DNA of 64,000 bases, taken from NCBI GenBank assembly GCA_963755715.1, contig CAVWLW010000026.1, positions 64,001 to 128,000 of the forward strand, given 5' to 3'. The notes under the pieces were generated by a model. That model searched no databases, was not told the origin of the DNA, and was given only the letters and a program-made list of their open reading frames with translations. Positions 27,438-56,950 of this stretch are shown here, piece after piece. Every line of letters starts with the position of its first letter. Position 1 is the first letter of the stretch. Origin of the DNA: an uncultured delta proteobacterium. GTDB taxonomy: Bacteria; Desulfobacterota; Binatia; UBA9968. Position numbers and translations under genes: made by a program.

Positions 27438-28550
27438 TTACGAAGAATGTGCCTCAGCCCTGCGCTGCTCGATCGAATAGCGTACCAAGGCGGCGTAGCG
27501 GTAAACGACGTGGGCGAACTTTCCATAGGGCAGCGTAATGAATAGTCCCGCGACGATACCTAAGTGAATGACCAAAAGCGTTCCCATCGCCGCGGTTTCG
27601 CGGAACACGAGCAGCACAAGACCGGTGAAGCTGGTGAGAAACAGCAGCACGAGAAATGCTACGTCCATGTTCAACATGCTTGCATCCGCCGGTGCGCGAT
27701 CGCTTTTCCACTTTAAGTAAAGCAGGCCCACGGTGCCGATCAGTAAACCGACGCCGCCGACGGTGCCGAGAACGACCGGCGCGCTAAAATACGGATACGG
27801 CGCCTGCCAATCAAGAAAGTGATCGTAAAACGCCGCGATGCTGGTAGCGGCGAAGTCGAGCAGAAAGCCGTAGAAGACCAGATGGTGGTACCACATTCGC
27901 GCGCGTGAAAAATTTTCCGCGGGGTAATTGCAGCCGGCGCCGCCGCCTTTCATATAGGCGAGGCCGAAAGCGTCTTTGGTCGCGCGCCACAGAGCGGCGG
28001 GATCGATTAGCGCAGAAATTGGTCCCTGAGTTTCGCGCCAAAAGCGGACCGCGCCGATGATGAAAACCGTCAAACCATAGAGCGCGATCAGCGACGGTGG
28101 CACGGTCATGGCGACAAACGGCACGACGCGGTAAAACGTCCCTTCTCCGAGATGGGTAGCGAATAGAACATTAGGGCCTTGGAACAAAAGTACGAGCGCG
28201 AGAATAATGATTATCGACGCGACGGTAATCGCACTCACCGCCAACACGTTGCGTTTGAACAGAACCGAAAGAAGCGCCGGCCAGGTGAACTCCCGATAAG
28301 TATCGGCGCGCAGCTCGGACATGAGTTTCGGAATATTGACGCCGAACTCATGCGGCGGCGCGTACTGGCAGGCGTAATAACAGTCGCGGCAGTCGAAACA
28401 GAGATTCGCTAGATAGGTCAGATCGGCTTTGGTAAAAACGCGGCGCTGTTCCATCGCCGGAAAAACCGCGCAGTATCCTTCGCAGTAACGGCAAGCATTG
28501 CAGATCGTCATCTGCCGCGCGCCGTCCTTTACCAGATCAAAATCCGGCAC
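27438..28550 (-). CDS. tcuB: Tricarballylate utilization 4Fe-4S membrane protein TcuB
   Basis: 'CNACRYCEGYCAVFPAM', 'CFDCRDCYYACQYAPPHEF', 'LPYGKFAH'; overlaps tcuA. Confidence 0.95.
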   Translation of the reverse strand: MPDFDLVKDGARQMTICNACRYCEGYCAVFPAMEQRRVFTKADLTYLANLCFDCRDCYYACQYAPPHEFGVNIPKLMSELRADTYREFTWPALLSVLFKRNVLAVSAITVASIIIILALVLLFQGPNVLFATHLGEGTFYRVVPFVAMTVPPSLIALYGLTVFIIGAVRFWRETQGPISALIDPAALWRATKDAFGLAYMKGGGAGCNYPAENFSRARMWYHHLVFYGFLLDFAATSIAAFYDHFLDWQAPYPYFSAPVVLGTVGGVGLLIGTVGLLYLKWKSDRAPADASMLNMDVAFLVLLFLTSFTGLVLLVFRETAAMGTLLVIHLGIVAGLFITLPYGKFAHVVYRYAALVRYSIEQRRAEAHSS

Positions 28551-29934
28551 GGCGCGCCGCCTCCCGCCCGGCGATTCTTCCGAATACGGAACCGATGGTT
28601 AAACCAAACCCTGCGAGATAACCTTGCCCGAGAATATTTCCAGCCATCACTTCACCCGCTGCGAAAACATTTTTTGCCGGCCGATCGTCTTGCATGATCA
28701 CTTGCGCCTGCTCGTTCACGGTAACTCCTAGATAAGTAAACGTGATCCCCGGCCGCAGCGGATAGCCGTAGTACGGCGGCGTATCGATCGGCCGGGCCCA
28801 ATGGCTTTTCGGTAGATCAAGGTCTTCCGTGTGGCACTCGTCTAGACTACCCGGATCGAATTTACCGCCACGCACCGAGCGATTGAATTTTTCGACGACG
28901 CCTGAAAGCGCATTCGGATCGATTTCAAACGCTTTGGCAAGCTCTGCAATCGAGCCGGCTTCGACCGGCGGAAATACCGACGGCATGAAGTGCGGCAATC
29001 CTTTGGAGTCGATGATCGAGTAAGCGATCTGCTCCGGTTGTTCGGCGATGAGTCTTCCCCAAATCGCATAGCGCTTGGGCCAAAAATCCTCGCCCTCGTC
29101 GTAGAACCGCTTCACATGTTTGTTGACGACAATTCCGAACGGCACGCTGTCCAGCCGGGTCACGATGCCGCCGTCGAATTTCGGCGCGCGCGCGTCCAGC
29201 GCGACGGCGTGACAGCCGCGCGGGTCGCCCTCCGGCTTGGCGCCGTGCCTGAGCAACTCCTTCAGCATGCCGCCCTGATTGTGCGGCGTGCCGCGGATGA
29301 TGAAATTGTCCGCGGCGTCGCCCCAGTATTCTTTCAGCCAGGGAATGTTCGCTTCGAAGCCGCCGCTGGCGACGACGAGAGCCTTCGCCGCGTACTCATT
29401 TGACCCGCCATTCCGACTCGCCACGGCAGAGGCAAACTGGCCGTCGGTCATTTTCAATTCACGCACCTCGGTTTCGTAGGCGATCTCCACGCCGAGCTTC
29501 GTTGCCGTAGCATAGTACGCATTCATCATCGCCTTGCCGCCGCCGAGCATGAAGAGATTGCTGCGCGTGAGATGCAGCGTGCCGCGCAGCGGCTTCTGCC
29601 AGCGCACGCCGTTGGCCGGCATCCAATCGCCCAGCGTTTCAGATTCGCGAATGGTCAAACGGGCCAAACGCTCGTTGGTCGCGCCGCCGGTGACACCGAG
29701 AAGATCCCGCCAAAACTCTTCTTCGCCGTAAGCGCCGGTGACGAACCCCGTCGCCGCCTTGTGCATGTAGCGAATGTCCCGTGTGTGGCGGCTATTGCCG
29801 CCGCGAAAGTCTTTCGTCGCGCATTCGAGCACGAGCACGGTCGCGCCGGCGCGCCGCGCCGTGATCGCCGCGCACAGCGCCGCATTGCCGCCGCCGGCGA
29901 TGAGAACATCGTATTGGGATGTTTGTGCTATCAT
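28537..29934 (-). CDS. tcuA: FAD-dependent tricarballylate dehydrogenase TcuA
   Basis: 'GGGNAALCAA', 'RGGNSRHTR', 'APKFDGGIVTRLD', 'DEGEDFWPKRYAIWG', 'GYLAGFGLTIG'. Confidence 0.95.
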   Translation of the reverse strand: MIAQTSQYDVLIAGGGNAALCAAITARRAGATVLVLECATKDFRGGNSRHTRDIRYMHKAATGFVTGAYGEEEFWRDLLGVTGGATNERLARLTIRESETLGDWMPANGVRWQKPLRGTLHLTRSNLFMLGGGKAMMNAYYATATKLGVEIAYETEVRELKMTDGQFASAVASRNGGSNEYAAKALVVASGGFEANIPWLKEYWGDAADNFIIRGTPHNQGGMLKELLRHGAKPEGDPRGCHAVALDARAPKFDGGIVTRLDSVPFGIVVNKHVKRFYDEGEDFWPKRYAIWGRLIAEQPEQIAYSIIDSKGLPHFMPSVFPPVEAGSIAELAKAFEIDPNALSGVVEKFNRSVRGGKFDPGSLDECHTEDLDLPKSHWARPIDTPPYYGYPLRPGITFTYLGVTVNEQAQVIMQDDRPAKNVFAAGEVMAGNILGQGYLAGFGLTIGSVFGRIAGREAARRAGF

Positions 29935-33391: not shown

Positions 33392-33573
33392 GCCGTGCCC
33401 TTTGCGGTTCGCGCCAGTCGAGGTCGTTGTCGTTGTGGCAGTCACCGATCCGAGCCGGCGAAAATCTGTGAAGGCGCAGCCGAGCAAGCTGCCGGTGTAA
33501 AAATGTTCCGCGGTTGACAGCAAAGAGCGCTGCATGGTTATCTGGCGCTCGCGCATCATCGCTGGAAGCTAAA

Positions 33574-34545
33574 ATGCAGCGTCAAGCGGCATTCGCCAAC
33601 CTAATCTTGCTCATTCTGAGTCTGTTTGTGGCGCGAGCCCATGCGGCCGAGCGGATCAAACTCGTTCTCGGCTATTCGACGACCGGCCCCACTGCCGTCG
33701 GCTTGTGGATGGCGAAAGACAGCGGCGCGTTCGATAAGTACGGCGTCGATCCGAGTTTCATTTTTATTTCGTCGAGCCCGGTGATGGTGCCGGCGTTGAT
33801 CGGCGGCGACGTGCAGGTGGCCATCGCCGGCGCCAATGCGGTCATCGCCGCCGTCCTCGGCGGTGCCGCGATTGTTTCGATAGCGAGTCTCGCCAATCGT
33901 CCCTATCTTCGCCTGTGGGTCCATCCCGAGATCAACCGCGTCGAAGAACTGCGCGGCAAAACTCTCGGCGTGTCGCGCTTCGGCTCGACCACGGACAATT
34001 TGACGAGAATCCTGTTGCGCCGGGTTGGCCTGGAAAACGCCGTGAACGTTCGCCAACTGGGCGGGACGCTCGAAGTCGGCCTTGCCTTTCGCCACCGCCA
34101 GATCGACGGCGCGGTGCTCGCTACTTTCCGTACCGACGCGCCGCATCGAATTCTGATCGAGCTTGCCGAATCCGGCATTCAATACTCCATGGGACAGCTT
34201 GTTGTCTCGCGCGATTTTCAACGCCGGTCGCCGGACACTTTGGAGAAGATCCTGCGTGCCTATATAGAGGGCGTCGCGGTGTTGCGCGATCCGAATCAGA
34301 GGGAGCGCGTCTTGAAGACTGTCGCGCGCTACACCCGGCTCAAAGAAACCAAGGCGATCGAAGAAATCTACAACGACGCTTTCAAATACGTCGACCGCGT
34401 TCCGCGTGTCGACGCCGACGCGGTCTCCACCACGCTGGAATTCATGGGCAAGAAAGGCCTGCCGATCGAAACCTTCGCCGACAATTCCATCATTGACCGG
34501 CTGGTCCGTGAGGGATTTATTAATCAGGTATATAAAAACCGTTGA
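33574..34545 (+). CDS. ABC transporter SBP, NitT/TauT family
   Basis: Signal peptide; 'LWMAKDSGAFDKYG', 'ELRGKTLGVSRFGS', 'LVREGFINQVY'. Confidence 0.88.
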   Translation: MQRQAAFANLILLILSLFVARAHAAERIKLVLGYSTTGPTAVGLWMAKDSGAFDKYGVDPSFIFISSSPVMVPALIGGDVQVAIAGANAVIAAVLGGAAIVSIASLANRPYLRLWVHPEINRVEELRGKTLGVSRFGSTTDNLTRILLRRVGLENAVNVRQLGGTLEVGLAFRHRQIDGAVLATFRTDAPHRILIELAESGIQYSMGQLVVSRDFQRRSPDTLEKILRAYIEGVAVLRDPNQRERVLKTVARYTRLKETKAIEEIYNDAFKYVDRVPRVDADAVSTTLEFMGKKGLPIETFADNSIIDRLVREGFINQVYKNR

Positions 34546-34568
34546 GAGTTGTGAGACGAGTTCACACG

Positions 34569-35450
34569 TCAGCAGTTACAGCGAACAGCGAATTCCTTCT
34601 CGTTATCGAGCAGCGATTCGCCCACTGCCTGGTGATCGGTAACGTGGCGTGCGACCGTGCTTAATCCATTACGATACATTTCTTTCACGGTCTCCTCCCA
34701 GTCTCGACGGCCGTCAGTGGACCACTGAAAAGGCAGCTCGACCATTCGCCAAGTTTCATCAAACCCCGGAGCCGCTGTCAGAGCCGCTCGCAAAATTTCG
34801 CGCTGGAGCTCGGGTTCGTTAGGTTTTCCTGCCGGGCAACCGAGGGGAAAGTCCAAAAACACCGTGCGCGGTGGTTTAAACGCCATGCTGACCTCCCACA
34901 GAGTGCTCATCGATAGTGTCGGCAAGCCCCGCGCTTCCAATGCTCTGGCGATCAGTCCGACGGACCGATGACAGGCAGGTCAGAACGGAAAGAGAAAAAC
35001 GAGATCGACGCCCTGGGTTTCAAATTCTTTTTTGATGGCGGGAACCGTGGTCTTGAGTAGTTCGCTGAACTTGGCGATCGATCCGACCATCGAAACCGCC
35101 CGGGGAGCGAGGCGGCCAATGACACCCTCGGTTTCCAACTCGATCAAGCGGTCACGCGGAAAGGCGACATTCAGATCTTCGAGCGCCCAGCTTCGAACCG
35201 GAGTCTGATGCGCGACCGTCAGCGCCGAGTAAGGAGTCCCGCGATCGATCAGCCGGTAGGACAGATCGTTGGTTTCCTTCAAAGGAACATCGTTGCGCAA
35301 TTGAACGCCGGCGCTGGTGAAGATGCCGATCGTCGATTGGGAAATTGGCTTTCGTAGCGGCGCGAGGCGAGGTGGCGCGAAATCGGGCTGCCGAGGATAA
35401 GGCTTGGGCGCCATCAGGTCGGTCATGAACTGCACGTAGCTAAAAGGCAA
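34569..35450 (-). CDS. PrdB/GrdB-like (glycine/betaine/sarcosine/D-proline reductase B family) selenoprotein; UGA at 34982-34980 read as Sec
   Basis: Two track ORFs are in the same frame, joined as VDLVFLFPF-U-PACHRSVGLIARALEARGLPT; 'IFTSAGV', 'DLNVAFP.DRL.EL..EG.IG', 'KPPR..FLDFPLG..AGKP'; SECIS-like hairpin follows the UGA; TTG start after GAAAGGGG. Confidence 0.88.
34951..34969 (-). promoter_or_regulatory. Bacterial SECIS-like hairpin
   Basis: mRNA UGA-CCUGCCUGUC-AUCGGUCC-GUC-GGACUGAU: 8-bp stem, apical loop starts with G 18 nt after the UGA. Confidence 0.7.
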
Positions 35451-35750
35451 AGTACACCCCTTTCCGAGGAACACAATTTAACATCAGATCCTTCACTTCG
35501 TTCGGGATGACTCCGATCAGGCCGAGGAATCTTCGTATCGTTACTTTACGCGCGCTCTGCGCCGGCGCGCAAAATGAGTCCATTACCTATCCCTCACGGC
35601 GGCGGACTTTATAATTAACTCGAACCGAAGGCGCAAGTAAATCACCTCCCCCTTGTCCTCCTTGACTCGCCATTCATGTCTGTCCTACTTTACGTTGAAC
35701 TCGCGTGACTCGATGAATCTCAGGCGCGCGCGTAAAACTAGGAGAAAAAT

Positions 35751-36890
35751 ATGACACAGACCACCCTGCTGGATGCAGACTCGCATGTCAGCGAACCATT
35801 GAACCTTTGGCAGGAGCGCTTGCCGGCAAAATACCGGGATATCGCGCCGCATATGGAGACGGAATACCAGGGACGGCCCGGCGCCTGGTGGTTTATTGAG
35901 CCCGATCGCGAACCGCACAACGTGATCTTGGGCTTCGGCGCCAACAAGTCGCTCGAAGAATTGCACGAATTATTGAAAGGCTTCTCGTACGCCGGAGCGC
36001 ACCGCGGCGGCTGGGATCCCGCGCAGCGGGTCAAAGACATGGATCAGGACGGCGTAGCGGGCGACGTGCTCTATACGACTCTGGGGTTTCGCATGTTCTG
36101 GATTAAAGAGGCCGGATTTCAGAGAGCCTGCTTCCAGGTTTACAACGATTGGCTCGCCGAGTTTTGTAGTCATTCGCCCGCGCGCCTCAAAGGCTTGGCC
36201 CTGATATCGCTCTACGACCCCAAGCAGGCTGCTGCAGATCTAGCGGACTGCGCCAAGAAAGGTTTGGCCGGGGCGATCGTGTGGGCTTCGCCGCCGGAAG
36301 ATTTGCCGTTTTACGCGGAATCTTACGATCCCTTTTGGGCCGCGGCGCAGGAACTTTCCATGCCCCTCAGCCTGCACGAGTTCGCCGGCTTTCGCTGGGT
36401 CGATTGGGACTCCAGCGCGAAAAAACGGACGATCGCGGCGGGCATCAATTCGCACGAAGTCGAAGGCACTTTTTCGACGTTGATCATGTCCGGCGTACTG
36501 GAGCGTTTCCCTGGTCTTAAAGTCGTCTCGGCGGAATTAAACTGCGGCTGGCTTCCCTATTTCCTGCGCCGCCTGGACGAACGCTTCGAGGCTCGAGGGG
36601 CGCGCGTTCATGGCAGCGCGTTTCCGACCAAGCTTACGCTCAAACCGAGCGAATATTTTCACCGCCAGCTCTACGCGACTTTTATCGATGATGCCTTCGG
36701 CGTTGCTCATCGCCACGACATCGGCGTGGAAAATCTTCTCTGGTCATCGGACTTTCCCCACAGCGCGACTTTTTGGCCCCATTCGCGCGAAAAGATCGCC
36801 AAGGATTTCCAGCTCGTCGATGACGACGACAAGCAGAAAATCCTATGCCGCAATACGGCCAAGCTGTACGGCTTTGACTTGAACGGGTGA
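35751..36890 (+). CDS. Amidohydrolase family 2 protein
   Basis: 'DADSHVSEP', 'YNDWLAEFC', 'GVLERFP.LK', 'WSSDFPH'. Confidence 0.92.
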   Translation: MTQTTLLDADSHVSEPLNLWQERLPAKYRDIAPHMETEYQGRPGAWWFIEPDREPHNVILGFGANKSLEELHELLKGFSYAGAHRGGWDPAQRVKDMDQDGVAGDVLYTTLGFRMFWIKEAGFQRACFQVYNDWLAEFCSHSPARLKGLALISLYDPKQAAADLADCAKKGLAGAIVWASPPEDLPFYAESYDPFWAAAQELSMPLSLHEFAGFRWVDWDSSAKKRTIAAGINSHEVEGTFSTLIMSGVLERFPGLKVVSAELNCGWLPYFLRRLDERFEARGARVHGSAFPTKLTLKPSEYFHRQLYATFIDDAFGVAHRHDIGVENLLWSSDFPHSATFWPHSREKIAKDFQLVDDDDKQKILCRNTAKLYGFDLNG

Positions 36891-52853: not shown

Positions 52854-54945
52854 CTACGTTTTCGGCGCGACGTTCACCGCGCCATCATCGAACGACATTT
52901 CATAATCGCCAAAGTCGTTGACCGAGAGTTCCCACTGTGGCGGAATCACCACCGTCGTCGTCGGCTCTTCGACAATCGCCGGCCCATGCACCGTCATGGA
53001 TGGCGCCAACCCGGCGCCGTCGAATACCGGTGCTTCGATCTTCACGCCATCGAAAACAACCTGGCGCCGTTTGCTCTCGACCGATCGACTCGAATGAGTC
53101 GTGCGCTTTTCCGACGACGGCCGTTCGGTTCGGCCGACGGCGGTGAGCCGCCAATGGAGCGCTTCGGCGGGCTGATCCGGCAAATTGTAACTATAGAGCC
53201 GGCGGTGTTGGGCATCGAAGGCCTTCTTGAGCTCGGTGAAACTTTCGTCCGGCGCGGCAAACGGGATCGTCACCTCGTGGAACTGGCCAACGTACTTTAG
53301 ATCGACGCCGTAGGATAGCTCGATGTCTTCTTTGCGCACGCCTTCTTGACTCAGAGTCTCGATCGCTTCCTCCGCCATCTCTCGGTAAAGCGCGTGAATT
53401 TTTTCCGGCGAAATTTTCGTAAGCTCGCCGGACAAGGTGCGCACATAGTCGTGTTTCAAGTCCGACAAAAGCATTCCCGCCGCGCAGAAAACCGACGCGT
53501 TGCGCGGAATCAGCAAATGACGAATTCCCAACTCCGCCGCGATCGCCGCGGCGTGCACCGCGCCGGCGCCGCCGGCGACGATCAGCACGCACTGGCGCGG
53601 GTCGTGCCCGGCGCCGATCGAGACTAATCGGATGGCGTCGGCCATCGTCGTATTGACCAGCCGATGGATGCCCTCCGCTGCGTGCAGCCTGTCGATCGCC
53701 AATGGCCCGGCGATCTTGTCGGCAATACCGTTCTCAGCCGCGGCCAAATCGAGCCGAAACTTGCCGCCGAGAAAGTCATCCGCGCCCAAATAGCCCAAAA
53801 CCAGATCGGCGTCGGTCACGGTTGGCGCCGTACCGCCGCGGCCATAGCAAATGGGTCCGGGATCGGCGCCGGCGCTGGCCGGCCCGACCTGCAACACGCC
53901 GCCTTCATCGACGACGGCGATGCTGCCGCCGCCCGCGCCGACGGTGCGAATATCGAGCACGGGAAAGGCCATCGCGTGGCCGCCCACCGATCCTTCTGTC
54001 GTGAAACTAACCTGGCCGTTCTTGATGAAAGAAACGTCAAAGCTCGTGCCGCCCATGTCCATGGTGATGAGATCCTGGTGACCGGCTCGCGTGCCGCAAA
54101 AAATCCCCGCCACCGGCCCGCCCGCCGGTCCCGACAAAAGCGTGCGACAGGCAAAGCGCGCAGCCATCTCGGGCGCCATCACGCCGCCGTTGGACTGCAT
54201 AATCAGCAATCGGCCGTAAAACCCGGCGCTCTCCAGACGCGCCGTCAAGCGTTCGAGATAGCGGGTCAGAATCGGTCCGACGTAGGCGTTAAGCGCGGTT
54301 GCGCTGTGTCGCTCATAGGCGCGCAGCTGTGGCAACACCTCGGTCGACAACGAAACATAGGCGGTGGGAAAATCTTCTTTGAGAATTTCTGCGACTTCGA
54401 GCTCGTGGACCGGATTCAAGAACGAGAAGAGAAAACTCACCGCCACCGATTCGACGCCGTTGCGCGTTTAAGCGCGTCGAATGACTGCGCGCGACGCCCT
54501 GGCGGTCCAACGGGACATTCTCGCGCCCTTCGCAATCGACGCGCTCGACGACGGTATAGCTCAAAGAGCGCGGCACCAGCGGCGCGGGCGGCGCGCATTT
54601 GGAATTGAACTGATCCTCGCGCACGCCGCGGCGCATCAACAACACATCGCGAAATCCCTCGGTGGTGACAAAGCCGGTTTTGGCGCCTCGGCCGGTAAGC
54701 ACGGCGTTGGTAGTGATCGTCGTGCCGTGCACGATGCGTATCACCGCCGCGAGAAAATCATTAATTGGAAGCCCAGTTTTGCTCGCGAGCTTTTCGAGAC
54801 CGTCCAACACCCCTTTGGAAGGATCTTCCGGCGTGGTGAAAGTCTTCTCGACGACGGTGCTTCCGTCGGCCTGCACCAGAACACAGTCGGTAAAAGTCCC
54901 ACCGACGTCGATACCGATCAAAGAGCCTGTTTTAATCCGGGACAT
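52854..54945 (-). CDS. Hydantoinase A / oxoprolinase alpha subunit (frameshifts near 54460-54500)
   Basis: 'GIDVGGTFTD', 'HGTTITTNA', 'LSGPAGG', 'DMGGTSFD', 'GAGGGSIA', 'PGPICYG', 'GPAIVEEPTTT'. Confidence 0.9.
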
Positions 54946-55147
54946 TGCGCGGTGCGGGTCGAAGCAAGAATTGCGGCACCAAAAAGTCTTGGCAAGTTCC
55001 GAGCCTCGCTATTGAGGATTGATCATCATGAGACGTTCATTTCCATTGGAATCGGGATTGGTATGTGCGCCCGGGAAATCTTTTTAGTCCATTGCAGCCA
55101 CCCCTCTTTGAAAAAGAGGGGCCGGGGGAGATTTATTGCTATCGTGT

Positions 55148-56950
55148 TCACGCAGATTTTCGCTCCGCGGCCTTCCGCCGCGAGCGTTCTTGTTGGGTCG
55201 CCTGCAAATTGATCTTACGATTGCCATCCGCACCGGCAATCGCCACGCCATAGTCGGCCAGCGCCGCTCCTTCCGACACCAGCCCGTCAATGACGTCATG
55301 TAGAACTTGATCGGCGTCGCGCTCCAGTGGATCGCCGAACCCGCCACCGCCCTGAGACACGAGCTCGAAAGTATCTCCTTCATCGATCGCGTGAAAAGCA
55401 TTGACGCCTAGCTCTCGCTGCGTGCCGTCGCGCGAAATAACTTTCATCCGCGGCAACGAGCCCGGCTTAGCGCCCAGGAGACCATAGGCGCGCGTCTCTT
55501 CGAGCATGCCCGAGCCGACAGTGACGCATTGGATCTCGGACGTTTCGACGCGCCAGCGGAGCATGGCGCCGGTGCCGCCGCGCCATCGTCCGGCTCCGCC
55601 CGTGTCCGGCGCCAACTCGTATTGCAATAGTGTGTACGGGTACGCCACTTCGAAAATCTCCGGGTCGGTGGCGCGCGAGCCGCCCATGTTACTCACCGGA
55701 CCGGTGTGGTTCCAACCATCGTAGCCTTCCGTGGCGCCCGAGCCGCCTTTGCAATTGTGATGCGTGCACACGAAGGCTCGGCCGGTGCGCGGGTTGTGCC
55801 CAGCGCTCATCGGCGCGCATCTGCGGCCCCAGCCGGCTTGCGACTGGGCGGGAACCGCCTTGGCCAGCGCGATCCAGATCGCGTCGGCGATGGCTGCGCA
55901 AGTGAGCAACGTCGACGCCGTCGTCGGCGCCGGCGGACGGCAATTGACGATGGAACCTTCCGGCGCGACGATGTCGATCAAGCGCAGCGAGCCGGCGTTG
56001 ATCGCAATCGCCGAACCGATACAGGCAAACAGCGCCTGGAAGCAGACCGACGCCGTGTTCGCCAAGGGACTGTTGACGTAGCCTCGCGTCTGCTTATCTG
56101 AGCGGGAAAAATCGAAGCTTAATCTCTGGCCGTCGACTTTGAGATCGACGCGGACGTTCGCCACGCGGTCCATTTCAATGCCGTCGTTGTCGAGCCCGCG
56201 CTCGCCGGAATAGGCGCCGTCCGGGATAGCGTGAATCGCGGCGGCCATCTTTTTTTCCGTGGCGCTCAAATAGGAATCGATCGCTGCTTCTACAGTCGCG
56301 CTGCCGTAGCGATCCAGCAGCTCTATTAGCGCTTCTTCGCCCCGCGCCGTTGCGCCGATCTGACAATGCAGATCGCCTTCGACCAGATGACGGCTCTTGA
56401 CGTTTAAGAGGATCAGATCCCAGATGTCGCTTTGGTATGTGCCGCGATCGTAGAGCTTGATCGCCGGCAAACGCAGCCCCTCTTCCCAAACCGTTTTGGC
56501 CGCCGGGTTGTAACCCGCCACACCGGCGCCGCCGAGATCCGCCTGGTGCCCTTTGGTCACTGACCAGAAAGCGAGCCGTTCCTGGTAAAACACCGGGCGC
56601 GCGATGGTAACGTCGGGAAGGTGGCTGTTACCCTCGTAAGGATCATTGGCGATGATCACGTCGCCGGCATGAAGCTCCTGGTTTTGATATTTGCGACAGA
56701 TCGCCTTCATGGCGAAAGGGATCGCGCCGAGCAGCACGGGAATATAAGAAGTCTGGGCAACCAATTGCGCCTGGTCATCGAAGATCGCAGTAACAAAGTC
56801 GCGCGACTCGCTGAAGATCGGCGAGCGCGACGTGAGCAGCATGATCTGCCCCATCTCCTTGGTAATGGCGGTAAGGCGGTTGGCGATCACCGCCACCGAG
56901 ATAGGATCAACGGATGGCGCGGTCATGGATAAATTCAGTTTCGCTGCCAT
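55148..56950 (-). CDS. Hydantoinase B / oxoprolinase beta subunit
   Basis: 'SPIFSESRDF', 'NDPY...SHLPD', 'HQADLGG', 'GGAGRWRGG', 'GGGGFGDPLER'. Confidence 0.92.
   Translation of the reverse strand: MAAKLNLSMTAPSVDPISVAVIANRLTAITKEMGQIMLLTSRSPIFSESRDFVTAIFDDQAQLVAQTSYIPVLLGAIPFAMKAICRKYQNQELHAGDVIIANDPYEGNSHLPDVTIARPVFYQERLAFWSVTKGHQADLGGAGVAGYNPAAKTVWEEGLRLPAIKLYDRGTYQSDIWDLILLNVKSRHLVEGDLHCQIGATARGEEALIELLDRYGSATVEAAIDSYLSATEKKMAAAIHAIPDGAYSGERGLDNDGIEMDRVANVRVDLKVDGQRLSFDFSRSDKQTRGYVNSPLANTASVCFQALFACIGSAIAINAGSLRLIDIVAPEGSIVNCRPPAPTTASTLLTCAAIADAIWIALAKAVPAQSQAGWGRRCAPMSAGHNPRTGRAFVCTHHNCKGGSGATEGYDGWNHTGPVSNMGGSRATDPEIFEVAYPYTLLQYELAPDTGGAGRWRGGTGAMLRWRVETSEIQCVTVGSGMLEETRAYGLLGAKPGSLPRMKVISRDGTQRELGVNAFHAIDEGDTFELVSQGGGGFGDPLERDADQVLHDVIDGLVSEGAALADYGVAIAGADGNRKINLQATQQERSRRKAAERKSA

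Follow-up and report, generated by a model that had tools for sequence, protein, structure and literature searches.

The question raised by this locus is whether two minus-strand open reading frames (ORFs) that share a frame, at 34980-35474 and 34569-34940, encode two small proteins or a single protein with an internal selenocysteine (Sec), and what such a protein would do. Both lie in the window, the whole 64-kb stretch of DNA (64,000 nucleotides) that was analysed. If the TGA at 34980-34982 is read as Sec, a single open frame results, ending at the TGA at 34569-34571. The initial annotation had proposed just this: that an in-frame UGA hides a real selenoprotein gene, that the two ORFs make up one PrdB-like protein of ~293 aa with a U-x-x-C-H-R-S motif and a C-terminal extension ending in C-N-C, and that an 8-bp hairpin with a G-first loop sits 18 nt after the UGA. 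All of these elements are borne out by the data described below.

35448..35450, within 34569..35450, minus strand: TTG start of the PrdB-like selenoprotein gene (293 aa, complete, internal Sec codon, stop TGA at 34569-34571)
35457..35465, minus strand: purine-rich GGAAAGGGG, 6 nt upstream of the TTG start, from its letters the likely ribosome-binding site of the 293-aa gene

The protein length is set at 293 aa because the TTG at 35448-35450 aligns with the start (M-P-Y/F-S-F/Y) of the database homologs. Full-length homologs with Cys are single proteins of 292-294 aa and not consistently two separate ones. The match to the PrdB model TIGR04483 runs across the UGA, from model position 17 to 235 of 238. 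A sigma-70 promoter scan of 34300-35800 found none, and the two terminator-like sites both lie inside the selenoprotein gene, their number not exceeding that in shuffled sequences.

Decoding of the UGA Codon

34980..34982, minus strand: UGA read as Sec, residue U157 (codon 157)

The read-through translation contains the motif F-U-P-A-C-H-R-S-V. The search for homologs with either Cys or UGA at this position, called for at the outset, returned 80 related loci, in which the position is a Cys codon (TGY) in 63, TGA in 15, frameshifted in one and partial in one; these 15 UGA against 63 Cys are a biased proportion, since a Cys codon was a requirement of one of the two search patterns. Each of the 16 aligned database homologs has Cys opposite the UGA. 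With the window gene, the 15 related loci make up the 16 UGA-bearing genes referred to below. An ortholog is present in 9 of the 41 genomes searched (G000 and 40 relatives), and TGA is found in all nine, G000 included; one of the nine, G022, is unpublished. Soil-metagenome contigs from two other studies span 34980-34982 and keep TGA rather than TGC, TGT or TGG, with no other letter listed. Contigs from RNA libraries span only 34922-35131 and 35199-35500, which is no full transcript, and may reflect DNA carry-over.

The genome also encodes the machinery for Sec insertion, comprising tRNA-Sec (76.7 bits, cut-off 47), selA (617 bits), selB (416 bits) and selD, all above their cut-offs, the selD gene itself carrying one TGA. 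Outside the window's clade, selA is present in five of five hosts of Sec forms; Cys forms also occur in genomes with selA (7 of 12 above cut-off). Downstream of the UGA, comparison with six relatives gives 35-63 synonymous and 12-29 non-synonymous codon changes, and the upstream portion is much alike; by these counts purifying selection acts on both halves of the gene, the part beyond the UGA included.

34949..34970, minus strand: SECIS-type hairpin of 9 pairs with one bulge

The core of this hairpin (34951-34969) has the sequence AUCGGUCC-GUC-GGACUGAU and forms 8 pairs, including one G.U, around an apical GUC loop at 34959-34961, with a weaker lower stem reaching to about 34941-34977. The hairpin starts 11 nt after the UGA and its loop, G first, lies 18 nt after it; the UGA-to-loop distance accepted in the description of bSECISearch is about 16-37 nt. 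A stem-loop soon after the UGA with a G (GU) in the apical loop, the bacterial SECIS criterion, is thus what is seen here. When 68 nt are folded alone, z is -0.66 and 45 of 200 shuffles are equally good; for the 42 nt from the UGA, z is -2.05 and 5 of 200 shuffles are as good. Fold z values are -2.05, -2.21 and -3.09 in three UGA genes and +0.12 and +0.98 in two Cys genes, but energy alone fails to separate the two groups because GC-rich actinobacterial genes fold too. Conservation is more telling. The same hairpin occurs in 16/16 UGA genes, and the peptide that it encodes, H[RQ]SVGLI, is found in all 16 of them and in 0/63 Cys genes. Synonymous sites are frozen at codons +4 to +10, bar the third loop base, while flanking invariant codons vary freely: third-codon positions of the stem are identical in 16, 16, 15, 16, 16 and 15 of the 16 genes, and the loop codon splits 11/2/3. 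Within the family 99.3% of 144 cells are paired and seven of nine pairs never vary, and because the hairpin is so nearly invariant there is no within-family covariation, that is, no change on both sides of a pair. Once a paralogous family is added, double-sided changes appear at three of nine pairs, with pairing kept in 96.6% of 297 cells; of those three, two represent one inherited difference between the family and its paralogs. Rfam (E <= 10, 34500-35500) returned no matching family, only a chance lncRNA hit.

Most probably, then, SelB directs selenocysteine to the UGA of codon 157 by way of the downstream hairpin. That this UGA is a true stop, leaving two separate small proteins or a pseudogene, is almost certainly wrong: gene callers do give two ORFs, and many N- and C-terminal fragments of this CxC-tailed family populate the protein database, but the second ORF could start no earlier than 34940, 13 codons past the UGA and within conserved sequence, and the hairpin, the Cys/UGA alignment, purifying selection on both halves, the Sec machinery and the single-protein Cys homologs all oppose such a reading.

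Relationship to PrdB and GrdB

The selenocysteine-containing protein belongs to the superfamily of PrdB and GrdB. On TIGR04483 it scores 144 bits (E 4.7e-42), which does not reach the cut-off of 300; the Cys homolog P0003 scores 137.9 bits and the PrdB representative P0172 453 bits. Identity to P0172, a bona fide PrdB, is 34% over 206 aa, and F-U-P-A-C-H-R-S aligns with its G-C-G-T-C-H-R-S, which puts the U/C-x-x-C-H-R-S motif at a homologous position. On Pfam GRDB (PF07355, cut-off 22) the read-through protein scores 21.4 bits and the N-terminal ORF alone 23.7 bits, covering only positions 217-344 of 347; TIGR01918 gives 38 bits against 65.45, and on the GrdB models the family scores 36-46 bits against cut-offs of 602-800. 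The GRDB and TIGR01918 scores indicate membership of the superfamily rather than identity as a GrdB. In the Protein atlas clusters for P0003, the only label is an automatic one, "glycine reductase family protein".

Within the superfamily, a stand-alone branch is defined at the sequence level by U/C-P-A-C-H-R, an extra cysteine (C205) and a C-terminal extension of ~50 residues ending in C-x-C. The main reading of the locus, with a rough probability of 0.6, is that the gene encodes a cytoplasmic selenoenzyme of 293 residues in the GrdB/PrdB superfamily that belongs to this branch, is Sec-decoded and is redox-active.

Cysteines, Structural Model and Proposed Redox Chemistry

34971..34973, minus strand: codon of C160, second residue of the pair in the U-P-A-C motif, presumed resolving cysteine
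34836..34838, minus strand: codon of C205, in the invariant block F-L-D-F-P-x-G-C-P-x-G
34572..34580, minus strand: C291-N292-C293, the terminal CxC, last three residues

In an alignment of 54 sequences U157 and C205 are invariant, C291 and C293 are present in 54 of 54 rows, and C160, which aligns with the second Cys of PrdB C-G-T-C-H-R-S, is nearly invariant, being Tyr in one relative (L037). Position 205 is Ser in P0172, and C205 is missing from some remoter CxC-tailed representatives (P0125). All 74 full-length related loci end in C-x-C followed by the stop, where x is N, Q, A or D, and this ending is absent from PrdB. The extension also contains conserved histidines, H273 (53/54 rows) and H269 (44/54).

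A structural model (mean pLDDT 93.2, pTM 0.93) has a Rossmann-like alpha/beta fold in which U157 lies after strand 150-154 and just before helix 158-173; residues 291-293 have a pLDDT under 50. Sequence searches of the PDB with the single protein and with the 54-row profile gave nothing meaningful, and Foldseek found no PDB match at E <= 0.001. The best Z of a wide VIA-align search, 7.4, was set aside as a generic Rossmann-like, periplasmic-binding or LacI-type arrangement that points to no specific relative. A homodimer is predicted for the Cys homolog of L038, 61% identical (score 0.76; best of three controls 0.42); among proteins of solved structure, 20 of 30 that are pairs and 1 of 23 that are single chains attain this mark. 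Contacts are 100% the same between runs and the partner pLDDT is 92, values that express model confidence and no measurement. The named interface comprises residues 48-68, 110-114 and 131-144 (L038 numbering), unnamed residues being merely uncertain, and because it excludes the active-site motif, C202 and the CxC tail, it lends no support to a tail that works across subunits.

The window protein is most likely a selenol/thiol reductase. U157, placed where a helix begins, as is the attacking residue of other UxxC/CxxC redox sites, would be the nucleophile and would form a selenenyl-sulfide with C160, and it is reasonably probable that the two do constitute a redox pair. The flexible C291-x-C293 dithiol, perhaps with C205, could then return reducing equivalents from the cellular thiol system to U157-C160. 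Such recycling by a C-terminal CxC shuttle, proposed by analogy with the CXC shuttle disulfide of Erv2, is more tentative and on balance doubtful. If it were true, an internal electron relay would explain how a PrdB-type site turns over without PrdA, PrdC and GrdA, and would make the chemistry of a structurally unsolved superfamily accessible in a tractable single protein.

The same five residues, U157, C160, C205, C291 and C293, could instead bind a metal or metalloid, whether Zn, Fe-S or a soft metal delivered by the tail as in MerA, and the protein would then be a metal-dependent enzyme or a metal or metalloid handler. Their near-complete invariance, the conserved histidines of the extension and the position of the terminal CxC on a flexible end are all compatible with metal binding. 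The loss of C205 from some CxC-tailed representatives is less so, and no metal-handling genes recur near the family's loci. Moreover, U/C-x-x-C-H-R-S aligns with PrdB, whose Sec-Cys pair was reportedly found to be redox-active by Kabisch in 1999. Sec at the first position only is also the usual UxxC pattern of redox selenoproteins in the tables of two marine surveys (PMC1088965; PMC2398784). A metal site is considered improbable, and a redox function for U157 and C160 is retained.

Genomic Neighbourhood and Possible Substrates

35751..36890, plus strand: divergently transcribed neighbour, an Amidohydro_2 (PF04909) enzyme by Pfam, noted here as genomic context

The oxygenase-type neighbours noticed initially are present, in the form of three luciferase-like monooxygenases, an FAD aromatic hydroxylase and a glyoxalase/dioxygenase-family gene. 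Of 81 loci, 29 have an Amidohydro_2 gene no more than 8 kb away, and in 19 the distance is at most 400 bp. Between the three clades, the Amidohydro_2 neighbours share just 24-30% identity, NCBIfam gave them no specific names, and the window alone has five such genes in 10 kb. As the neighbours are not orthologous and the genomes are rich in Amidohydro_2, this context signal is weak; a conserved two-gene module was rejected as orthologous on the basis of the low identity, while recurrence at the level of the family stands.

Two glutathione S-transferase (GST) genes are found 2-3 kb from the selenoprotein gene in the window. They would suit a general protective oxidoreductase that handles thiol-disulfides or peroxides, is recharged by thioredoxin or glutathione and performs no carbon-heteroatom cleavage, and such proteins typically combine UxxC at a helix start with a second dithiol. 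Across the 81 loci, however, no peroxiredoxin, thioredoxin or thioredoxin reductase recurs beside the family, the recurring neighbours being catabolic enzymes and solute-binding proteins, and it is the whole PrdB core that is conserved, not the motif alone. A protective role of this kind is improbable, and a PrdB-like reductase is preferred. For the latter, a reductive step on a catabolic intermediate, and not on D-proline or glycine, is guessed because neighbourhoods across five clades are rich in genes for aromatic and organic-acid catabolism; the assignment of any specific substrate class from such context is unlikely to be correct.

Search for Stickland Partners

The initial annotation held that PrdA, GrdE and GrdA partners are absent from the window, and tblastn of the 64 kb with the genome's own GrdE-like, GrdA and GrdB proteins indeed gave no match. 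No GrdE/PrdA (PF09338) or GrdA gene lies within 8 kb in the 80 related loci. PF09338 genes are likewise absent from ten of ten other host genomes (5 Cys-form, 5 Sec-form), some of these being incomplete MAGs; 14 control genomes also gave no positive, and the sole positive control was the source genome. Judged by gene content, the CxC-tailed family needs no pyruvoyl subunit (PrdA/GrdE), because none is encoded near any locus or anywhere in the ten other host genomes.

The anticipated absence of prdA and grdE from the genome itself did not hold. Elsewhere the source genome encodes five full-length GrdE/PrdA-family genes and one fragmented, as well as a GrdA gene with a UGA. Five of these six GrdE-like (PF09338) loci adjoin a true GrdB gene of their own; the C63 locus is without a GRDB match beside it. 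"No partners" is thus true of the family and not of the source genome, and the notion of a self-contained enzyme stands locally (80 loci, the window and 10/10 other genomes) but fails as a description of the source genome. From that genome alone, a link to its GrdA and GrdE-like proteins is possible. The window protein might accordingly be a substrate-specific "protein B" component that feeds Grd machinery encoded elsewhere, much as multiple protein B complexes are described as feeding one reductase system in Synergistota (PMC10838667). This is very improbable, given that all but the C63 locus own an adjacent GrdB, that scores on the GrdB models fall so far short, that Sec and Cys forms alike reside in ten other genomes without a PF09338 gene and that no Grd-system gene occurs in the window.

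Returning to a stand-alone reductase, a bolder version would make the CxC-tailed branch a single-polypeptide, self-contained counterpart of the Stickland reductases, with Sec/Cys attack, no pyruvoyl subunit and its own CxC arm. The Sec or Cys would attack the carbon beside a carboxyl or carbonyl of an intermediate of aromatic or organic-acid breakdown with loss of a leaving group; C160 would then resolve the adduct, and the CxC arm would carry electrons from thioredoxin or glutathione back to the site. Cleavage of the C-F bond in fluoroacetate has been put forward for a GrdB-like protein, so non-amine leaving groups are already under consideration in the superfamily (PMC10838667). The proposal is speculative and probably not correct as it stands; if true, it would bring partner-free glycine/proline-reductase chemistry to aerobic soil.

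Distribution and Annotation of the Family

Hosts of the CxC-tailed branch are soil Desulfobacterota/Binatia-like bacteria, Acidobacteriota, Vulcanimicrobiota and Actinomycetota, the last including the culturable Catenulispora and Amycolatopsis. In the tree, the non-actinobacterial clade has the Sec forms at its base, and no fewer than three switches between Sec and Cys are needed, which makes the family a clean natural experiment on Sec versus Cys. Gene callers break the window gene into two "hypothetical" halves, as they do its relatives, and database fragments either stop at profile positions 152-153, immediately ahead of the Sec, or start right behind it. The family's Cys members are labelled "D-proline reductase (dithiol) PrdB" by JGI, the family as a whole goes under the wrong name of D-proline reductase PrdB, and because of this mislabelling metabolic reconstructions of soil bacteria may wrongly infer Stickland-type proline reduction.

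Comparison with Known Systems

The locus had been put forward as an undescribed kind of system, a claim that does not survive: beyond the JGI label, counts of PrdB-type UxxC selenoproteins that have Cys homologs were published for aerobic ocean metagenomes in 2005 and 2008. A survey of the Sargasso Sea listed 42 Sec-containing "proline reductase PrdB" UxxC sequences (Zhang, Fomenko and Gladyshev, 2005; PMC1088965), and a survey of the GOS data listed 235 Sec and 110 Cys sequences of PrdB, assigned to pfam07355 (Zhang and Gladyshev, 2008; PMC2398784). Like the window gene, these are related to PrdB/pfam07355, have UxxC and Sec/Cys pairs and occur outside Stickland fermenters, and the window gene falls under these already catalogued stand-alone PrdB-like selenoproteins. 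In their accounts of PrdB the two surveys group the marine proteins with PrdB and describe neither a CxC tail nor independence from partners; compared by the survey descriptions only, the window branch and the marine sequences may or may not be the same subfamily. In the literature on PrdB-like and GrdB-like homologs, no description of the CxC-tailed branch was found.

The closest characterized relative is PrdB, a selenoprotein subunit of ~26 kDa in the clostridial D-proline reductase, the enzyme that converts D-proline to 5-aminovalerate. The core is homologous with that of PrdB, the U/C-x-x-C-H-R-S motif is aligned and the existence of both Sec and Cys forms is shared. The window protein differs in having ~25 extra N-terminal residues and ~50 extra C-terminal residues ending in CxC, and Cys205 where PrdB has Ser; PrdA is encoded neither nearby nor in the ten other host genomes, and the gene lies among oxygenase, amidohydrolase and transporter genes and not in a prd operon. 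GrdB, GrdF and GrdH, the selenoprotein B of glycine, sarcosine and betaine reductases (PF07355, TIGR01917/01918), belong to the same superfamily and have Sec in UxxC. Compared with GrdB, the window protein is without the ~200-residue N-terminal part and without an adjacent GrdE, and it scores far below the cut-offs.

For the tail, likeness is confined to the manner of working. Mammalian thioredoxin reductase has a GCUG tail of the shuttle dithiol type and MerA has a C-terminal Cys pair; a mobile C-terminal Cys pair is what both would have in common with the window protein, and their folds are unrelated to it. In Erv2 the C-terminal CXC is a shuttle disulfide (PMC4019985), and here too a mobile C-terminal Cys pair is combined with a CxxC-type site, although the folds are unrelated and the window protein has no flavin domain. 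The CXC of Erv2 is described as passing electrons to a flavin-linked active-site disulfide, the direction of an oxidase (PMC4019985), whereas the tail of the window protein is proposed to work in the opposite direction.

Reading Frame and Decoding of the UGA Codon

The gene runs from 35450 to 34569 on the minus strand of the window, where a TGA at 34980-34982 parts two open reading frames that share a frame (34980..35474 and 34569..34940). Read as selenocysteine (Sec), this codon leaves the frame open until the stop at 34569-34571. Homologs begin with M-P-Y/F-S-F/Y, and alignment places the counterpart of this start at TTG 35448-35450, 6 bases downstream of GGAAAGGGG. The PrdB-like selenoprotein therefore comprises 293 residues, with U157, C160, C205 and a terminal C291-N-C293 as its key residues. 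Re-reading of the frame from the sequence confirmed the gene coordinates, motif, hairpin geometry and tail of the initial annotation. A contig from run X2 omits 196 bases between the selenoprotein and Amidohydro_2 genes (window 35459-35656), with only 30 letters on its shorter side, which makes the evidence weak; this gap may be a strain variant.

The genome holding the window, G000 (7.4 Mb, 76 contigs, completeness 93.6%), contains a complete set of Sec machinery, including tRNA-Sec (76.7 bits against a cut-off of 47), selA (617 bits), selB (416 bits) and selD, with the protein-coding genes found side by side:

G000:C3:71086-75411, selA + selB + selD cluster

The selD gene has one in-frame TGA of its own, and SelD is therefore probably itself a selenoprotein.

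A protein database search with a threshold of E <= 0.001 returned 324 homologs; the top 120 are mostly 292-294 aa long with 56-64% identity, and Cys stands opposite the UGA position in 16/16 homologs aligned. A check for homologs with Cys or UGA at this position had been proposed initially, and a scan covering a single genome per species yielded 80 related loci in which the aligned codon is TGT/TGC in 63, TGA in 15, frameshifted in one (L106) and partial in one (L107), the UGA forms being under-counted in this ratio because one of the two search patterns required a Cys codon. Among G000 and 40 relatives, nine of the 41 genomes (G000 counted) have a full-length ortholog with 62-100% identity, and TGA is kept in all nine, one of which (G022) is unpublished. 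Compared with six relatives, codon differences downstream of the UGA comprise 35-63 synonymous and 12-29 non-synonymous changes; those upstream are also mostly synonymous (21-64 and 14-34, respectively). The stretch is found in 14 soil-metagenome DNA runs (share >= 0.78) from eight studies. Contigs of two other soil studies cover 34980-34982 and list no alternative letter there. RNA-library contigs, which are not proof of transcription, span 34922-35131, including the UGA and hairpin, and 35199-35500. The gene very probably encodes a translated selenoprotein, with a probability of roughly 95%.

Three irregular loci were also encountered. A close relative in the L037:8481 region has U-P-A-Y-H-R, with Tyr for the presumed resolving Cys; this reflects a sequencing error or else a natural variant lacking C160. 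L036 has an additional in-frame stop and L106 a frameshift right after the Cys codon; both are possible pseudogenes or assembly errors.

The SECIS-Type Hairpin

The clearest signal for Sec decoding is the freezing of third positions in codons +4 to +10 after the UGA. All 16 UGA genes, the window's included, encode H-[RQ]-S-V-G-L-I after U-x-x-C, a sequence found in 0/63 Cys genes, and the hairpin AUC[G/A]GUCC-GUN-GGACUGAU is the RNA that encodes this peptide. Third positions across these codons are identical in 16/16, 16/16, 15/16, 16/16, 16/16 and 15/16 UGA genes; the codon whose third base falls in the hairpin loop differs among genes (C in 11, T in 2, G in 3). The flanking invariant residues Pro+1, Ala+2, Arg+12, Leu+14, Arg+17, Gly+18, Pro+20 and Thr+21 use 2-6 codons. 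Since stem third positions are frozen and the flanking codons free, selection acts on the RNA and not on the protein. Fold z values for the 42 nt from the UGA are -2.05 (window), -2.21 (L073) and -3.09 (L062), compared with +0.12 and +0.98 for two Cys genes.

Within the CxC-tailed family, homologs sharing the U/C-P-A-C-H-R motif and a C-terminal extension ending in C-x-C, seven of nine helix pairs never vary and pairing holds in 99.3% of 144 cells; covariation is absent because the helix hardly changes. The hairpin of a paralogous PrdB-like family lies at an equal distance from the UGA with a different stem, AUGAGACC-GUC-GGUCUCAU. Joint alignment of both families (35 sequences) reveals both-sided changes at 3/9 pairs, two of which are single inherited inter-family differences, so that events are few. 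Pairing reaches 96.6% of 297 cells compared with 84.6 +/- 1.5% in shuffles (0/500 reach the observed value), and falls to 18-39% on sliding the partner.

Another stand-alone PrdB-like selenoprotein, with 33% identity, is encoded by G000 itself at C76:107147-107932 (L024:1258-2331, minus strand). Its motif is U-P-F-C-H-E-T-V-G-L-I, it has neither C205 nor a CxC tail, and its hairpin lies at the equal distance with a distinct, compensating stem. Most relatives searched carry copies, all with TGA.

Family Assignment and the CxC Tail

Among family models, NCBIfam TIGR04483 matches best (PrdB; E 4.7e-42, model positions 17-235 of 238), with a score of 144 bits, below its cut-off of 300. Scores on GrdB-type models are 33-46 bits, their cut-offs being 65-800, and Pfam GRDB gives a threshold-level match restricted to the model's C-terminal third. 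Identity to P0172, a bona fide PrdB by TIGR04483 (453 bits), is 34% over 206 residues. The PrdB-like active site proposed initially is borne out by this alignment, with F-U-P-A-C-H-R-S opposite G-C-G-T-C-H-R-S. P0172 differs in having Ser at the site of the family's invariant C205, and in ending ~50 residues before the CxC-tailed protein. C-x-C followed by an immediate stop is found in 74/74 loci with a near-full match, and C291 and C293 are present in 54/54 aligned rows; H273, E284 and F287 of the extension are also conserved in this alignment.

Searching 1.84 billion representatives with a profile gave 2161 relatives at E <= 0.001, including 77 at E <= 1e-30. A CxC ending occurs in 12 of the best 150 of these, so that the CxC-tailed branch makes up a minor portion of a large superfamily of stand-alone PrdB-like proteins, which includes fusions to AMP-binding enzymes and an HTH domain. 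In P0266, P0263, P0167 and P0183 the PrdB-like domain is C-terminal to AMP-binding (acyl-activating) enzymes or an HTH domain. One relative weakly matches PF24696, the 'UGSC family' (E 9e-4), a hint of possible remote kinship with the abundant UGSC selenoproteins of the sea.

Evolution of Sec and Cys Forms

In a quick maximum-likelihood tree, built on 54 rows after removal of the Sec codon and the columns encoded by the hairpin, the window and eight Sec forms of 'delta proteobacterium', Syntrophobacteraceae and Binatia MAGs form one group (support 99). The remaining six Sec forms are basal to the Vulcanimicrobiota and Acidobacteriota Cys clades; all Actinomycetota members are Cys forms. At least three Sec/Cys switches are needed. 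Because the hairpin is identical across Sec forms, the economical reading of this midpoint-rooted tree would be one Sec origin followed by several Sec-to-Cys replacements. Cys forms persist in selA-bearing genomes (selA over cut-off in 7/12). At window codon 47 (~35310-35312), the Cys that is nearly invariant in F-x-S-C-G gives way to Ala in 8/8 Sec forms aligned from the window's clade (L029-L037); the six remaining Sec forms retain it.

Partner Proteins

Five full-length GrdE-like proteins of G000, its GrdA and one GrdB served as tblastn queries. As originally noted, no GrdE/PrdA or GrdA homolog is found in the 64 kb window, nor in the 80 loci (up to 8 kb on each side). The proposed genome-wide absence of prdA/grdE does not hold, as G000 has five full-length and one fragmented PF09338 (GrdE/PrdA-family) genes plus a UGA-containing GrdA gene:

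GrdE/PrdA-family and GrdA loci of G000
C57:47178-49583
C56:1523-3936
C64:97590-100093
C25:20346-22691
C14:73560-76062
C63:75206-76396
C69:65256-65690

A GRDB gene adjoins 5/6 of the PF09338 loci, with an in-frame TGA seen in three of these GrdB genes. The glycine-reductase-type repertoire is large in this soil genome with an oxygenase-rich window.

Neither the five Cys-form hosts searched (the complete chromosome of a Lustribacter, the complete genomes of two Amycolatopsis, Kutzneria sp. 744 and one MAG from Terriglobia) nor five Sec-form hosts outside the window's clade yielded PF09338; because some of these hosts are MAGs, the gene may have been missed in individual cases. selA is present in all five Sec-form hosts. 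The CxC-tailed family as a whole, in searched hosts that include MAGs, is independent of PF09338 genes, and the gene product is a PrdB-like protein of this PrdA-independent family, very probably Sec-decoded.

Genomic Neighborhood

The selenoprotein gene is flanked by:

35751-36890, Amidohydro_2 gene, divergent from the selenoprotein gene with 300 bp between
33514-34545, NMT1/SsuA-like binding protein, convergent with the selenoprotein gene

In 29/81 loci an Amidohydro_2 gene is found no more than 8 kb away, and in 19 the distance is at most 400 bp. It takes three arrangements relative to the PrdB-like gene: it diverges in the window's clade, follows on the same strand in Acidobacteriota and precedes on the same strand in Gaiellales-type Actinomycetota. 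An orthologous association was rejected, given just 24-30% identity between clades and five such genes in the window (at 35751, 37553, 41584, 42876 and 44211); the association is thematic. Further recurring neighbors include FAD aromatic-ring hydroxylases, FAA-family hydrolases, LigXa-like Rieske oxygenases, molybdenum hydroxylase subunits, SDRs and solute-binding proteins. By gene content, the theme is aerobic catabolism of aromatic or organic acids.

The window is unusually dense in paralogs, with at least 10 NMT1/SsuA-like solute-binding protein genes. It also holds a tricarballylate-utilization pair, TcuB (4Fe-4S, 418 bits) and TcuA (FAD, 682 bits), at 27441-29934 (minus strand), three luciferase-like monooxygenases (13355, 51808 and 62910), a UbiD decarboxylase (49152) and hydantoinase A/B (52857-56950).

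Predicted Structure and Comparison with Known Systems

An AlphaFold2 model from the 54-row alignment (mean pLDDT 93.2, pTM 0.93) places U157 after strand 150-154, immediately ahead of helix 158-173; pLDDT falls below 50 only at residues 291-293. No solved-structure relative was found by sequence search, and none clear by fold search. The Cys homolog from L038 is predicted to form a homodimer, scoring 0.76 compared with 0.42 for the best of three controls, with 100% contact agreement across runs and a partner pLDDT of 92; the mark applied was reached by 20/30 proteins solved as pairs and 1/23 solved as single chains.

In marine surveys, UxxC selenoproteins named 'Proline reductase PrdB', with Cys homologs, rank among the most abundant, with 42 Sargasso Sea sequences (Zhang, Fomenko & Gladyshev, 2005; PMC1088965) and 235 Sec plus 110 Cys sequences in GOS (Zhang & Gladyshev, 2008; PMC2398784). 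These surveys, and reviews of 2022 and 2026, file marine UxxC proteins with PrdB. The gene studied is a solid, real selenoprotein of this catalogued but uncharacterized kind. Its conserved CxC-tailed architecture is a variant without a description found in the literature passages searched, and the same is true of a partner-free PrdB-like branch. The aligned motif and the position at the helix start suggest that U157 would act as nucleophile and that C160 would resolve it into a selenenyl-sulfide. More speculatively, the mobile terminal CxC might re-reduce the U157-C160 pair, by analogy with Erv2, in which a C-terminal CXC acts as a shuttle disulfide (PMC4019985).
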